14,096 bases of DNA from a virus (Duplodnaviria; Heunggongvirae; Uroviricota; Caudoviricetes). The position numbers and the translations under genes are program-made. The notes beneath the pieces were generated by a model. It did not search any database, was not told where the DNA came from, and saw only the letters and a program-made list of their open reading frames with translations. The stretch lies in IMG/VR virus record IMGVR_UViG_2563366951_000003. The stretch is one strand, 5' to 3'. This document shows, piece after piece, positions 1 to 11,320 of this stretch. Position 1 is the stretch's first letter, and every line of letters starts with the position of its first letter.

Positions 1-1236
1 CTACGATAACCGCGCATTCAACATGGCTATCTGTTCGTCGTTCATGTCATCAATCCACATACCGTAAATTTTATACACCATCTGCGCAGTTTCATGCCCC
101 ATTTGGCTGGCTATAAATGCCGGGTTCGCTCCTGCCGTCAACAGCCAGCAGGCAAAAGTATGCCGCGTATGGTACGGATTACGGCGGCGAATACCAGCAC
201 GTTTTACTGCTGCATTCCACCTTGCCCCCAAACTGCTTACCGAGTAATAAGGTTTTTGTTTTCCGTTACACACCCTGGGCATGAAAACAAAATGCAGTTT
301 TTGCTTTTCGGTTCTGCCGTACTCCCGATGATAAAAGGTGATTTCGCTTTTGCGATGATGCCCGGTCAGTTTGTATTGCTCCTTCAGTGCTTCAAGAGCA
401 GGCTGCAGTAGTGTTACTGTTCGGATCCCGGCATTTGTTTTTGGGGGACCGAACATATCAAGTATCGTCAGGTTTCTTCTGACATTCACTATTCCCTTTT
501 CGAGATCCACATCCTCCCACGCCAGAGCTGCCAGTTCCCCGTGACGAAGTCCTGAGTAAACGGCAAATTTCCACAAGTTCTGGCTCTGTCCTTTTTCACT
601 TTCCATTAATGCATTGAATTCTGTTTTAGATAACGGATCAGGCTTTATTCTGTTTCGCTGTAATTTTTTTACTCCTTCAAATGGTTTGGTTGATATAAAT
701 CCCGACTGATACGCAAAACGCAACAGCGAACAGAGCAGGGCGATATAGTTATCAACTGTGCGCACGGTTCTTCCTTTTTTGTTGGATCTTGGATTATCCA
801 GGTAAAGCGTTTCTCCATGCAGCAGTTCATTCCGGTAGTTTAAGATATCGCTATAACGAATATGTGATATCGGGGTACTTTCACAAATTATTATTCTGAG
901 TGTTTTTAATTGTGATTTCGTTTTCTTCATTGTGTTTGTTGTTAACTCTGTCTCTTTAATTTTTGTCCAGATATCACAAAGCTCTCCGAACGTTTTTATG
1001 ACTCTCGTTGTCACCATTTTTGCCCCAGTGCTGGACTGGGGAAAACGTCTTAAATACTCAAATTCACCGGAGTTTATTTCATGAACTATCAGCGCTCTTA
1101 AATTTCCGGCCTTTTTAATATTACTGTTTGTAATCTCCCAGCCTTTTAATGTTTCCCGACATCGTTTTCCTCGAAACATGAACCAGATGCGAATGTATCT
1201 ACCTCTAATCTCGACACCTGTTGGTAATTTAGACAT
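1..1236 (-). CDS. intR: Prophage integrase, tyrosine recombinase (411 aa)
   Basis: Full ORF with stop at 1-3. C-terminal catalytic signature of tyrosine recombinases (HTRHT ... MVYKIYG with the Tyr nucleophile). Sequence and length match my recollection of Rac IntR. Preceded by a small excisionase-like gene. Confidence 0.93.
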   Translation of the reverse strand: MSKLPTGVEIRGRYIRIWFMFRGKRCRETLKGWEITNSNIKKAGNLRALIVHEINSGEFEYLRRFPQSSTGAKMVTTRVIKTFGELCDIWTKIKETELTTNTMKKTKSQLKTLRIIICESTPISHIRYSDILNYRNELLHGETLYLDNPRSNKKGRTVRTVDNYIALLCSLLRFAYQSGFISTKPFEGVKKLQRNRIKPDPLSKTEFNALMESEKGQSQNLWKFAVYSGLRHGELAALAWEDVDLEKGIVNVRRNLTILDMFGPPKTNAGIRTVTLLQPALEALKEQYKLTGHHRKSEITFYHREYGRTEKQKLHFVFMPRVCNGKQKPYYSVSSLGARWNAAVKRAGIRRRNPYHTRHTFACWLLTAGANPAFIASQMGHETAQMVYKIYGMWIDDMNDEQIAMLNARLS

Positions 1237-7744: not shown

Positions 7745-8164
7745 TTAAGAGGCTTTTTGTTTTTTCTTTCGTGCTAACTCTTCGTAAATTGCATTGTACT
7801 TCTGTTTTTTCTCCTCAAGAGTTTTTAAAAGTTCATCTGTCTCACTGTCAGGGAGCTCGTCCAGAAGGTCAATGATGATTTTTTGTCTTGGATTTAACTC
7901 CTGATAGAAACGTATCTGTCCACTTTCTTCTGTATCCTCTCCCAAAAGATAGGTTGGTGTTGTTCCAATGAGTGTTGCTAATTCCCTTAATTTCTCTCGG
8001 CGAGGAATTGTTTCACCATTAAACCATTTGCTAACCGCTTTTGGTGTTAATTTCATTCGACGGGCAATTTCTGCCTGCCTTCCATGTTGTTCATAACCAG
8101 CGTTTTCACAGGCTAGCGCAAGCCTACTGGCGAACTCTTTACGCGCTTTATCTTCATGAACCAT
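7745..8164 (-). CDS. racR: RacR, cI-like HTH (XRE-family) prophage repressor (139 aa from the first ATG)
   Basis: Helix-turn-helix segment QAEIARRMKLTPKAVSKWFNGETIP. Divergent from ydaS-ydaT. An in-frame stop lies 19 codons upstream of the ATG, so the protein cannot be much longer in this sequence. Confidence 0.85.
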   Translation of the reverse strand: MVHEDKARKEFASRLALACENAGYEQHGRQAEIARRMKLTPKAVSKWFNGETIPRREKLRELATLIGTTPTYLLGEDTEESGQIRFYQELNPRQKIIIDLLDELPDSETDELLKTLEEKKQKYNAIYEELARKKKQKAS

Positions 8165-8243: not shown

Positions 8244-8498
8244 ATGAACCAGAAAACACTTGAAGATGTAATCAAAACTGTTCGCGTTTCTGTTGTGGCC
8301 GACGTTTGTGGTGTCAGCCAAAGAGCAATCTACAAATGGATGGATAACGGAAAATTGCCTCGCACAGAATATACCGGCGAAACAAATTACGCTGAAAAAA
8401 TCGCTCATGCATCAAACGGATTATTTTCTGCCGATGCAATTTTAACTATTGGCAGAAATAAAACTACTACGAAAAAGCTGATGGGAGTTGATTCATGA
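8244..8498 (+). CDS. ydaS: YdaS, Cro-like HTH protein (84 aa from the SD-preceded ATG)
   Basis: HTH segment VADVCGVSQRAIYKWMDNGKLP. GAGGA precedes the ATG at 8244. In-frame ATGs at 8208 and 8172 are alternative starts but lack an SD. Stop overlaps the ydaT start (ATGA). Confidence 0.8.
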   Translation: MNQKTLEDVIKTVRVSVVADVCGVSQRAIYKWMDNGKLPRTEYTGETNYAEKIAHASNGLFSADAILTIGRNKTTTKKLMGVDS

Positions 8499-8917
8499 AA
8501 ATCAAGCATGAGCACATCGAATCAGTGTTGTTAGCCCTGGCAGCCGAAAAAGGGCAGGCGTGGGTCGCTAACGCAATTACTGAAGAATATCTGCGCCAGG
8601 GGGGCGGCGAATTGCCCCTGGTACCAGGCAAGGACTGGAACAATCAGCAGAATATCTATCATCGTTGGTTGAAAGGTGAAACGAATGCGCAAAGGGAAAA
8701 AATTCAGAAACTGATCCCTGCGGTTCTGGCAATTCTTCCTCGCGAGCTGCGTCACCGACTCTGCATCTTCGATACCCTGGAACGCCGTGCATTACTGGCG
8801 GCACAGGATGCACTGAGTACGGCAATTGATGCGCATGATGATGCAGTCCAGGCCGTTTACCGTAAAGCACATTTCAGCGGCGGCGGTTCTCCTAGCGATT
8901 CTGTCGTAGTGCATTGA
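8495..8917 (+). CDS. ydaT: YdaT, toxic protein of the RacR-controlled module (140 aa)
   Basis: 140-aa ORF translationally coupled to ydaS by a 4-nt overlap. Matches remembered YdaT. Confidence 0.85.
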   Translation: MKIKHEHIESVLLALAAEKGQAWVANAITEEYLRQGGGELPLVPGKDWNNQQNIYHRWLKGETNAQREKIQKLIPAVLAILPRELRHRLCIFDTLERRALLAAQDALSTAIDAHDDAVQAVYRKAHFSGGGSPSDSVVVH

Positions 8918-8930
8918 TTGAAATTAATCG

Positions 8931-8952
8931 TACCGAACTGTTTTGTTCGGTA
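8931..8952 (+). other. Stem-loop TACCGAAC-TGTTTT-GTTCGGTA immediately after the ydaT stop
   Basis: Read directly: 8-bp perfect stem, no clear U-tract afterwards. Lies between ydaT and the ydaU leader palindrome. Confidence 0.3.
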
Positions 8953-8961
8953 TCAGTTAAA

Positions 8962-8982
8962 TGTAACGCTGCGAGCGTTACA
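8962..8982. repeat. Perfect 21-bp palindrome TGTAACGCT-GCG-AGCGTTACA in the ydaU leader
   Basis: Read directly: 9-bp arms are exact reverse complements around a 3-bp spacer. Same core as the repeats inside ydaU. Confidence 0.8.
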
Positions 8983-8994
8983 AGGTGAAAACAA

Positions 8995-9783
8995 ATGGCT
9001 TCAAACTGGATAAAGCTCGAAGTTATTACGCCGGATAAGCCGGAAATATTCAGGCTTGCTGAGATTCTGAATATTGATCCAGATGCCGCATTAGGGAAAG
9101 TCATTCGCTTCTGGGCATGGGCGGATCAACAAATGATAGACGGTAACGCAGAGTGTAACGCTCGCGGCGTTACAAAAAGTGCAATAGATCGCATCACTTT
9201 TATGGCTGGTTTTGCTGATGCGTTAATTCAGGTTGGATGGCTGGTCGAAACTAATGGTGTGTTGTCGCTTCCTAACTTTGAGCGCCATAACGGGAAAAGC
9301 TCTAAAAAACGGGCGGTTACAAACGAGAGAGTAACAAAAATACGAGAACTGAAACGAAAAGGTAACGCTGCCAGCGTTACAAAAACGGATCAAAAAGCGT
9401 TACCAGAGGAAGAGAAAGAGGAAGATATAAATACTTATCTCCCCCTAAATCCCCCTCGCCAAAAACGAGCGTCTAAAAAATTCGAACCGGAGGCTATCGA
9501 GCTGCCTGACTGGTTGCCGGAAACACTCTGGCATGAGTGGGTTCAGTTCAGGCAGGCATTGCGAAAACCGATTCGAACGGAGCAGGGCGCTAACGGGGCG
9601 ATACGGGAGCTGGAAAAATTCCGCCAGCAGGGTTTTTCACCTGAGCAGGTGATTCGACACAGCATCGCCAATGAATACCAGGGCTTGTTCGCGCCAAAAG
9701 GTGTTCGACCTGAGACGTTACTCCGACAGGTTAACACCGTCTCGTTACCGGATAGTGCGATCCCGCCAGGCTTCAGGGGGTAA
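8995..9783 (+). CDS. ydaU: YdaU, putative replication-initiation (O-like) protein (262 aa from ATG)
   Basis: AGGTG Shine-Dalgarno 8 nt upstream of the ATG. Gene sits directly before the DnaC-like ydaV and contains multiple GTAACG palindromic repeats, as lambda O contains its ori iterons. In-frame GTG (8986) or TTG (8914) starts are possible. Confidence 0.8.
   Translation: MASNWIKLEVITPDKPEIFRLAEILNIDPDAALGKVIRFWAWADQQMIDGNAECNARGVTKSAIDRITFMAGFADALIQVGWLVETNGVLSLPNFERHNGKSSKKRAVTNERVTKIRELKRKGNAASVTKTDQKALPEEEKEEDINTYLPLNPPRQKRASKKFEPEAIELPDWLPETLWHEWVQFRQALRKPIRTEQGANGAIRELEKFRQQGFSPEQVIRHSIANEYQGLFAPKGVRPETLLRQVNTVSLPDSAIPPGFRG
9143..9174. repeat. GTAACGC half-site plus palindrome TGTAACGC-TCGCG-GCGTTACA inside ydaU
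   Basis: Read directly: half-site at 9143-9149, palindrome with 8-bp arms at 9154-9174. Confidence 0.75.
9316..9380. repeat. Degenerate GTTAC/GTAAC inverted pair (9316-9335) and palindrome GTAACGCT-GCC-AGCGTTAC (9362-9380) in an A-rich stretch of ydaU; candidate origin iterons
   Basis: Read directly. About eleven GTAACG half-sites cluster between 8960 and 9740. The arrangement resembles lambda ori iterons inside gene O. Confidence 0.6.
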
Positions 9784-9789
9784 CTGACC

Positions 9790-10536
9790 ATGAAAAATAT
9801 TGCGGCAGGCGGCATTCTTGAACGTATCCGCAGACTGGCCCCGCCACATGTAACCGCCCCATTCAAAACGGTAGCGGAGTGGCGCGAGTGGCAACTTTCC
9901 GAAGGCCAGAAACGTTGTGAGGAGATCAACCGTCAGAATCGTCAGTTGCGGGTGGAAAAAATTCTGAATCGCTCTGGCATCCAGCCATTGCACCGCAAAT
10001 GCTCGTTTTCGAATTACCAGGTGCAGAACGAAGGGCAGCGATACGCGTTGAGTCAGGCGAAATCCATCGCTGATGAACTGATGACCGGGTGTACAAATTT
10101 TGCGTTCAGCGGAAAACCTGGTACCGGAAAAAACCATCTGGCGGCGGCTATCGGGAATCGCCTGCTGAAAGATGGCCAGACAGTGATTGTGGTTACCGTG
10201 GCTGATGTCATGAGTGCCCTACACGCCAGCTATGACGACGGGCAATCAGGCGAAAAATTTTTGCGGGAACTGTGCCAAGTGGATCTGCTGGTTCTTGATG
10301 AAATTGGCATTCAGCGCGAGACAAAAAACGAGCAGGTGGTGCTGCACCAGATTGTTGATCGCCGGACAGCGTCGATGCGCAGCGTGGGGATGCTGACAAA
10401 CCTGAATTATGAGGCCATGAAAACATTGCTCGGCGAGAGGATTATGGATCGCATGACCATGAACGGCGGGCGATGGGTGAATTTTAACTGGGAGAGCTGG
10501 CGTCCGAATGTCGTCCAGCCAGGAATTGCGAAGTAA
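9790..10536 (+). CDS. ydaV: YdaV, DnaC-like AAA+ helicase-loader replication protein (248 aa)
   Basis: Walker [11 protein letters not shown] and Walker B LLVLDEIG motifs. Position is equivalent to lambda P/DnaC. Length matches remembered YdaV. Confidence 0.9.
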
Positions 10537-10558
10537 TTTTTACCGGGAGAAAAATTTA

Positions 10559-11320
10559 ATGGAGACTGTTTTTGACGCACTGAAAGCAATGGGAAAAGCC
10601 ACATCCATAGAACTTGCTGCGCGACTTGATATCAGCCGTGAAGAAGTGCTGAACGAACTATGGGAACTGAAAAAGGCTGGTTTCGTTGATAAAAGCGCGT
10701 ACACCTGGCGTGTGGCTGATAACAACGTTCAGCAGGAACAGCCAGCGCCGGCAGAACTGCCGGAAGAAACTACCACGGCAACAGTCGCGAAAATTTCAGA
10801 GAGCGATTTAACTGCGACGATTGAACAACGTGGTCCACTAACTGCGGATGAACTGGCTACGTTGTTCGGTACCACATCCCGCAAAGTGGCTTCAACGCTG
10901 GCAATGGCAATCAGCAAAGCTCGTCTGATTCGCGTTAATCAGAACGGTAAATTTCGTTACTGCATGCCGGGCGGTAATTTACCAGCAGAGCCGAAAGCTG
11001 CATCGGTAGCGGAAACAGATGGTAAAGCCTTTCCTCAGCTAGCCGGTGTTGCGTTACCAGTACAGGAAGCTGCAACACAGGAAGATATTAAAACAGAAAC
11101 TGTGGCGGACATTGTGCAGTCGTTGCCATCGTTTACTGAAACGCAAGCGGATAACCTGATTTTACCATCGCTGCATATGGCAAACCGTGAACTGCGTCGG
11201 GCGAAAAATCATGTCCAGAAGTGGGAGCGAGTCTGCGCCGCGCTGCGGGAGCTGAACAAGCACCGGGATATTGTTCGACAGATTACTGATTCTTCCCGCC
11301 GTGTTGTATCGGAAAAGTGA
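10559..11320 (+). CDS. Uncharacterised prophage protein with winged-helix-like N-terminal region and basic/coiled-coil C-terminus (253 aa); possibly the intact counterpart of K-12 ydaW
   Basis: GGGAGA SD 8 nt before the ATG at 10559. The tracked ORF starts at 10508 inside ydaV without an SD. Two segments resemble winged-helix folds ([31 protein letters not shown] and [34 protein letters not shown]). Family assignment is from memory only. Confidence 0.7.

Follow-up and report, generated by a model that had tools for sequence, protein, structure and literature searches.

The stretch analyzed here, called the window throughout, is the 14,096-nucleotide virus record IMGVR_UViG_2563366951_000003 (Caudoviricetes), and the system in question is a set of GTAACGC palindromes lying in and just before its gene for a 262-residue replication initiator. 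We consider it likely that these palindromes are duplex-DNA sites for dimers of the N-terminal domain (N-domain) of the initiator and that together they form a phage replication origin of the lambda type. By comparison of homologous loci, the sites were shown to be selected at the DNA level, specific to the initiator locus, co-varying with the initiator clade, and inherited in one cassette together with the N-domain. A lambda-like origin within the initiator gene had been proposed in an earlier reading of the same sequence (the original prediction). This proposal is supported by the in-gene dyads, the cluster in the linker-coding region, the AT-rich tract, the DnaC-like loader and the cassette exchange, all of which are features of the sequence. 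An origin within the initiator gene would in itself be an already known arrangement. What would go beyond the lambda model is the separation of the clusters by about 200 bp and the conservation of one recognition sequence across phyla in coding DNA.

Palindromes and half-sites in the window

The features on which the interpretation is built are as follows.

8916-9525, plus strand: exchangeable cassette comprising the leader, N-domain and linker coding regions; holds every site and is absent from K-12 Rac
8962-8982: leader palindrome TGTAACGCTGCGAGCGTTACA; non-coding, starts 33 nucleotides (nt) upstream of the ATG
8995-9783, plus strand: replication initiator gene, 262 amino acids (phrog_2509, phrog_678, AlphaFold models)
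9142-9149, plus strand: extra half-site GGTAACGC, 12 bp upstream of site 1
9154-9174: site 1 palindrome TGTAACGCTCGCGGCGTTACA; encodes the low-confidence N-domain loop C-N-A-R-G-V-T
9361-9381: site 2 palindrome GGTAACGCTGCCAGCGTTACA, within the linker-coding region
9397-9404, minus strand: half-site GCGTTACC; encodes A-L-P, 35 bp after the start of site 2
9405-9439, plus strand: polypurine tract AGAGGAAGAGAAAGAGGAAGA (9405-9425), then AT-rich TATAAATACTTATC; candidate DNA-unwinding element
9441-9458, plus strand: double C5 run CTCCCCCTAAATCCCCCT; possible accessory element

The word GTAACG was found 20 times in the window, against 4.73 +/- 2.23 expected and a maximum of 10 in 200 dinucleotide shuffles (0/200 reached 20), which bears out the enrichment that had been anticipated. 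Half of the copies (10/20) fall within 8963-9748. Just three sites match the full motif GTAACGC-N5-GCGTTAC, each of them perfectly (8963-8981, 9155-9173 and 9362-9380; 0.42 expected), and their start-to-start distances are 192 and 207 bp. Two of the three are inside the initiator gene and one is in its leader. The near-identical palindromes originally described at 8962-8982 and 9362-9380 thus proved to be perfect 7-5-7 copies. The third copy, at 9154-9174, is likewise a palindrome; the longer spacer ascribed to it was not observed, since its spacer is 5 nt and its layout is 7-5-7 like that of the others.

A degenerate fourth palindrome had also been proposed, at 9316-9335. The sequence there (9316-9336) was found instead to consist of two one-mismatch half-sites facing outward (GGTTAC ... 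GTAACA), an arrangement of another type, and it was dropped as a site of the system because the homologue comparisons mark no conserved site there. The isolated half-sites of the original prediction were retained in part. Those at 9142-9149 and 9397-9404 belong to the system, the former having arisen from a 12-bp (four-codon, ECNA) insertion according to the homologue alignments. Those at 9716 and 9743 were dropped, as they lie in the C-terminal segment common with K-12 ydaU, itself without palindromes, and they are probably unrelated to the palindrome system.

Outside 8960-9750, GTAACG was found at 264, 1835, 1875, 4962, 10955, 11052, 11418, 12330, 13374 and 13530, the copies at 1835 and 1875 being 40 bp apart. 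These 10 copies (12 including the two C-terminal ones) exceed the 4.7 expected for the whole window, and none is palindromic. The Dam-site word CGGATCAA(C/A)AA was observed at 9122-9132, 22 bp before site 1, and at 9386-9396, 5 bp after site 2. The GATC between site 2 and the downstream half-site is also present in the enterobacterial loci L066, L073 and L078 and was not seen outside enterobacterial relatives.

Conservation across homologues

The comparison covered 170 homologous loci from phage records, IMG/VR and one-genome-per-species contigs, the contigs being scanned with a six-sequence alignment; the non-redundant set comprised 74 loci below 85% nucleotide identity. The same 7-5-7 palindrome was present twice, with at most two mismatches, in 64 of the 74, at +148 to +172 and +337 to +393 from the ATG and 189-237 bp apart. 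The loci bearing it are from Enterobacteria, Pseudomonas, Burkholderiales, Xanthomonadales, Planctomycetes, Verrucomicrobia, Acidobacteria and others, and members of the initiator family were identified in phages and prophages from five or more phyla. The palindrome arms are conserved across the family, and the spacer sequence varies freely.

Conservation of the repeats at synonymous positions had been named in the original prediction as the observation on which it should be judged, and the outcome is strongly in its favor: third positions at the sites were found to be frozen. The palindrome glycine is encoded by GGT in 68/73 cases, compared to 3/74 and 5/74 at other invariant glycine columns, and a single codon likewise prevails for Asn (AAC, 68/68), Ser (AGC, 49/50) and Val (GTT, 68/70), as well as for Asn (AAC, 59/59) and Val (GTT, 49/53) at site 2. 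The third-position entropy of four-fold codons was 1.15 bits or less for all of those inside the sites and 1.40 bits or more for all of those outside. Between -60 and +460, the density of the five-base core TAACG/CGTTA is 7.1 per 520 bp, compared to 0.55 in the flanks, and the full site is confined to the initiator locus in three complete phage genomes. On these comparisons, the palindromes are taken to be real sites under DNA-level selection.

The in-gene copies share a reading frame and encode (G/C)-N-A-x-(G/S)-V-T, as would be the case if the repeats were a by-product of a needed peptide motif, G-N-A-x-x-V-T. This explanation was considered extremely unlikely. The motif falls in low-confidence loop and linker regions, and in one locus from Planctomycetales (L170) the peptide changes to G-C-A-P-S-A-T exactly in step with the DNA half-site. 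The frozen synonymous positions and the non-coding leader copy were deemed to rule out a protein-repeat explanation.

Other arrangements were observed at individual loci. L133 has two palindromes, at +148 and +172, only 24 bp apart, and everted CGTTAC...GTAACG arrangements occur in L154 (+346, +359, +369) and L165 (+596). Comparison of the loci suggests that half-site arrays grow and shrink through small in-frame duplications.

Clade-specific half-sites and the probable binding partner

Four clades were found to have four half-sites, GTAACGC, GTCACGC, GTTGCGC and GTCCGCA, and where more than one site was found in a clade, the sites share the half-site of that clade. L170 carries GTTGCGC-N5-GCGCAAC at both positions together with tandem half-sites (eight copies of GCGCAAC), and the same polypurine tract follows its sites. 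GTCACGC/GCGTGAC was found in L137 and L149 and, at both positions, in L261 of the Vibrio-phage clade, and other Vibrio-phage loci have GTCACA/TGTGAC. The SPN1S/epsilon15-like clade, about 27% identical to the window initiator protein, has GTCCGC(A/T)-N5-(A/T)GCGGAC at +65 and at +344 to +353 in about 70 distinct loci, with (AGAGAAG)n again after the sites.

The genes downstream of the initiator differ among the phages that bear the sites, being annotated, for example, as 'replication protein P' in VW-6S and DUF1064 in SPN1S. Since these genes vary so widely, the N-domain is the only constant partner of the sites. The binder is most likely the initiator's own N-terminal domain, because this domain is kept family-wide and because diverged N-domains go with different half-sites. 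The two winged-helix proteins encoded downstream in the window are, by this comparison, not conserved partners.

Recognition of the sites by a host factor, or by the DUF1627 and DUF977 winged-helix proteins, was judged quite unlikely. Two helix-turn-helix/winged-helix genes do follow ydaV in the window, but homologues with the sites have wholly different downstream genes. The clade-specific half-site switches would not be explained by a conserved host factor, and the confinement of full sites to the initiator locus in the three complete phage genomes also speaks against such a binder.

Initiator protein and exchangeable cassette

The initiator protein is laid out as the N-domain (residues 1-122), a disordered linker (about residues 123-170) and a C-terminal O-like/DnaT-like domain. 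The whole matches phrog_2509, 'replication initiation protein', at 4.7e-88, residues 76-236 match phrog_678, 'replication initiation O-like', at 3.1e-26, and residues 89-262 have 35% identity to the 'lambda gpO homolog' of Gifsy-2. No Pfam match to the initiator was obtained even at E values up to 10, none was obtained to the N-domain in 28 homologues, and no sequence match to the protein was found in PDB. Membership of the lambda O family (Phage_rep_O and relatives) by way of the N-domain was rejected for want of any Pfam or PDB match. Assignment as DnaT was also rejected, as NF002770 scored 17 bits against a cut-off of 201 and the match was limited to the last 19 residues.

In the AlphaFold models, the N-domain is helical and includes a helix-turn-helix and a beta-hairpin wing (residues 61-91), and the disordered linker connects it to a helical C-domain; as modeled, the N-domain is winged-helix-like. 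The predicted local distance difference test score (pLDDT) is low for loop residues 47-60 and has a mean of 40-52 for residues 121-150. Both in-gene palindromes encode low-confidence loop or linker segments, which in the models would be places where a DNA element embeds at little cost to the protein.

The homology of K-12 Rac to the window is restricted to 8489-8915 (92.8%) and 9526-10600 (97%). The K-12-like segment from 9526 comprises the last 86 codons of the initiator gene and ydaV, and the 610 bp at 8916-9525 are unrelated to K-12 Rac at the nucleotide level. The gene had been called ydaU in the original prediction, which holds for the last 86 codons; the first two thirds have no K-12 homology. 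Homology of the N-domain to K-12 YdaU was also rejected, as hhalign matched the shared C terminus only. In the Rac variant comparison, the N-domain and sites replace the K-12 ydaU N terminus exactly, and on this evidence they are exchanged together between Rac variants as one cassette. The cassette was found in 687/5426 complete E. coli genomes, and the N-domain family amounted to 6437 clusters at 50% identity in the full HMMER scan (E <= 1e-3).

Some E. coli initiator variants (L030, L036 and L041) are 376-378 amino acids long. In these, about 115 codons are inserted into the linker directly behind the polypurine tract (relative to the window, ~9425/9440 to 9475), and this insertion contains CCCTTCCCTTCCGGAAGGG.

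Site 2 cluster and flanking tracts

When the homologues were anchored on site 2, the family consensus was gtaAcg..aaagGTAACGCt...AgCGTTAc....gcgttacc.aaagaa.a....aaa..agA..a..a. Half-sites around the palindromes recur across the family at offsets of -12, +23 or +35. Their spacing at the site 2 cluster is 11-12 bp, and the half-sites would therefore lie on one face of the helix. The A-L-P codons over the downstream half-site are GCG in 42/45, TTA in 43/45 and CCT in 34/44 cases.

The polypurine tract has the family consensus TAGAGAAGAGAAGAGAAGAGAAGA, and every Arg codon within it is AGA, a codon that is rare at conserved Arg columns elsewhere in the initiator gene. Because AGA is used for every Arg, the peptide R-E-E-K-R-R-E is interpreted as the translation of (AGAGA)n. 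Across the family, the AT fraction of the tract is 0.63 compared to 0.45 for the gene, and its purine fraction is 0.73. In the window, the A-rich stretch that had been noted near the palindromes was confirmed as an A-rich, purine-rich stretch of about 9280-9440, with an AT skew of at least +0.54 from 9280 to 9439.

The element CCCCC-TAA-CCCCC(C), often then followed by GGGGG, was found at the same place in 8/45 anchored homologues as well as in part of the SPN1S clade, and the initiator genes that carry this double C5 run have no C5 runs elsewhere. The run may serve as an additional origin element, or it may simply reflect a Pro-rich linker. In the window the copy is degenerate and lacks the G5 arm. 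The double run was observed 30-45 nt after the polypurine tract in L076, L073, L104, L123, L147, L157, L223, L225 and L228, which are from scattered clades, and K-12 ydaU has TCCCCCCCGGGGGA (L010 2255-2268) at a comparable place.

Leader copy and possible regulation

The leader palindrome was originally described as overlapping the ribosome-binding region of the initiator gene. It was found instead to end at 8982 and to adjoin directly the Shine-Dalgarno sequence AAGGTG (8983-8988). Among enterobacteria, 30 distinct leaders were found to have the palindrome, at 33-45 nt before the ATG and in several cases between unrelated flanks. Its arms are almost invariant, and its spacers include TGCGA, TTACA, TCACA, TGTGA, TAGCG, TGTCG and ATCAT. 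A Stenotrophomonas locus has the palindrome 93 nt upstream of the ATG. In other homologues the upstream gene abuts the ATG, and these have no leader copy and keep both in-gene sites. The one pointer to autoregulation is the position of the leader copy, which makes it possible.

The data were also considered in terms of regulation only, with the palindromes as operators at which the initiator or another dimeric protein represses or roadblocks the replication operon, and with the origin elsewhere. Repressor operators typically show perfect dyad symmetry, the leader copy is immediately 5' of the ribosome-binding site, and the spacing of about 200 bp suits repressor looping. This explanation was nevertheless deemed unlikely, as no sigma-70-like promoter was predicted on the plus strand between ydaT and the initiator gene, and most homologues lack the leader copy altogether and still keep both in-gene sites. 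Furthermore, the polypurine AT-rich tract and the phased half-sites beside site 2 have no obvious role in repression, and exchange of the cassette with the N-domain mirrors that of origin-initiator specificity units.

The leader was predicted to fold into two strong adjacent hairpins (-28.2 kcal/mol, z = -3.9). This strong folding, together with the fact that the arms stay complementary through clade switches, is what would be expected of hairpins in mRNA or single-stranded DNA, serving as an mRNA stabilizer, a translational element or a priming signal, rather than of duplex sites. Such a role is very unlikely, as the arm sequence itself is kept across phyla, beyond mere pairing, while the loops vary, and as isolated half-sites are conserved without any pairing partner. 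The Shine-Dalgarno sequence is also left free in the leader fold, and no T-run follows on the plus strand. Recognition of the palindromes as duplex DNA by the N-domain is therefore still preferred.

The second leader hairpin, TACCGAAC-N6-GTTCGGTA, is located at 8931-8952, between the ydaT stop and the leader palindrome. It is perfect in the closest relatives only, with GTGCCGGA...GTTCGGTA in other E. coli variants, and has no plus-strand T-run. The terminator scan gave no matches to intrinsic terminators on the plus strand. Minus-strand matches were reported at 9362-9380 and 8931-8952; these are probably scan artefacts, because each palindrome precedes an A-run on the plus strand, and no minus-strand gene ends there.

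Comparison with known systems

The lambda origin is located within O and consists of hyphenated-dyad iterons, each bound by an O dimer, with an adjacent AT-rich opening region, and in O itself a flexible linker joins the N-terminal domain, which binds DNA, to the C-terminal domain, which binds the loader (PMC6022878). The window resembles this in that its initiator gene contains 19-21 bp dyad sites, with one cluster in the linker-coding part, and a tract rich in purines and in AT. A DnaC-like loader gene is adjacent, and the C-terminal half of the initiator is 'O-like' by PHROG. Unlike lambda O, the N-domain has no detectable match to any Pfam family. Unlike the four adjacent iterons of lambda, the window sites are in two or three clusters about 200 bp apart, one of which is inside the coding part for the DNA-binding domain itself. 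The flanking tract consists of a polypurine repeat, (AGAGA)n, one recognition sequence persists across phyla, and the loader is DnaC-like rather than lambda P.

K-12 Rac is a prophage of the same type, with the order racR, ydaS, ydaT, initiator and ydaV, and its ydaT, last 86 initiator codons and ydaV are 93-97% identical to those of the window. In contrast, its leader, N-domain and linker are unrelated in sequence, and it has none of the GTAACGC palindromes. The K-12 protein is called 'YdaU family protein' in RefSeq, whereas the window protein is called 'hypothetical protein'. K-12 Rac has been reported to have an active origin, oriJ (PMC3945230). A repeat of a different sequence, (A/C)AGATGTTCAAACA, was found in the K-12 ydaU cassette (L010 1872-2189). 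Counted from the ATG, copies are located at about +141 and +228, and four direct copies plus one inverted copy are clustered between +352 and +459, a layout that resembles the GTAACGC system. On sequence, these repeats are candidates for the oriJ iterons. The idea of swappable initiator-origin units fits, because the K-12 cassette carries its own, different repeat.

Iteron plasmids (pSC101 RepA, F RepE, P1 RepA, R6K pi) have a winged-helix Rep protein that binds both inverted repeats and helically phased single-orientation repeats. Their site clusters are parted by the rep gene, permitting looping, and the inverted repeats serve autoregulation. The window may be comparable in its initiator, winged-helix-like as modeled, and in its inverted and phased half-sites. 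P22 gene 18 and SPP1 gene 38 oriL have initiator-binding repeats in the initiator's own coding sequence, beside an AT-rich region. The window differs from both in protein family and repeat type, and no sequence relationship was detected.

Proposed mechanism and its weight

In the proposed mechanism, the site 2 cluster (9361-9381 plus the half-site at 9397-9404, with 11-12 bp spacing) would seed the initiator complex. This complex would adjoin the polypurine, AT-rich tract at 9405-9439, which would be the strand-opening region, and the C-terminal O-like/DnaT-like domain of the initiator would bring in the complex of the DnaC-like YdaV with DnaB. Site 1 (9154-9174 plus 9142-9149) and the leader site (8962-8982), about 200 bp apart, would be auxiliary and could enlarge or loop the complex. 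The leader site would possibly also throttle read-through transcription into the initiator gene.

Several observations weigh against an origin of this kind. The clusters are 189-237 bp apart, unlike the compact four-iteron array of lambda, and no helical phasing was found between the two clusters, with R at about 0.4 for all trial periods of 10.0-11.3 bp. The candidate unwinding tract in the window is only moderately AT-rich (GC 0.35-0.45), its composition could stem partly from the acidic/basic linker peptide, and no DnaA boxes within one mismatch were found near the region. One half-site is kept across several phyla, and phage initiators usually diversify their specificity. Only two plasmid records have the gene, both phage-like (41 and 52 kb), and no natural minimal replicon was seen. 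No binding or replication experiment on the initiator family was found in the searched literature, and searches for ydaU, ydaV and the peptide motif gave no description of this origin or family.

A broader proposal, possible but doubtful, is that a previously unrecognized origin grammar is common to thousands of phage initiator clusters across phyla. Its units would be 7-bp half-sites phased at 11-12 bp and grouped, within the initiator coding sequence, into two or three clusters separated by about 200 bp; an (AGAGA)n polypurine opener would come next, and sometimes a C5-TAA-C6/G5 element. The peptides G-N-A-x-x-V-T and R-E-E-K-R-R-E would then be by-products of DNA elements, and a looped or wrapped complex would couple origin firing to the control of initiator expression, unlike the compact O-some of lambda.

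The favored interpretation would provide a concrete origin and an initiator-site assignment for a gene called 'hypothetical protein' in the 687 E. coli genomes that have the cassette. With the half-site classes and their fixed positions, origins could be marked automatically in these genomes and replication-specificity groups predicted, and the N-domain family, despite its 6437 clusters, has no Pfam model. The locus is also an unusually clean natural case in which DNA-level constraint over-rides codon choice, and even amino acid choice, within a gene.

Gene order and annotation

By gene order, the window is a Rac-like lambdoid prophage. Its other features are as follows.

1-1236, minus strand: int
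after int in the gene order: recT, recE and sieB
7745-8164, minus strand: cI-like repressor gene
between the cI-like repressor gene and ydaT: ydaS, Cro-like
8495-8917: ydaT, CII-like
9790-10536, plus strand: ydaV, DnaC/IstB-like helicase loader (PF01695 at 6.2e-20)
downstream of ydaV: DUF1627 and DUF977 genes (helix-turn-helix/winged-helix)

The PF01695 match places a helicase-loader gene directly 3' of the initiator gene. The initiator gene is 100% identical in the deposited genomes of Escherichia phages vB_EcoS-673R7 and vB_EcoS-666R9, and because of its identity to the vB_EcoS-673R7 genome the initiator system was deduced to be present in a live phage. The name 'ydaU' in Rac-like prophages covers two unrelated N-terminal modules. 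The names given to the initiator gene vary, being 'DNA replication protein O' in phage records and 'primosomal protein I' or 'replication initiation protein' in relatives. In RefSeq E. coli genomes it is a 'hypothetical protein', and only the K-12 type is named YdaU family.

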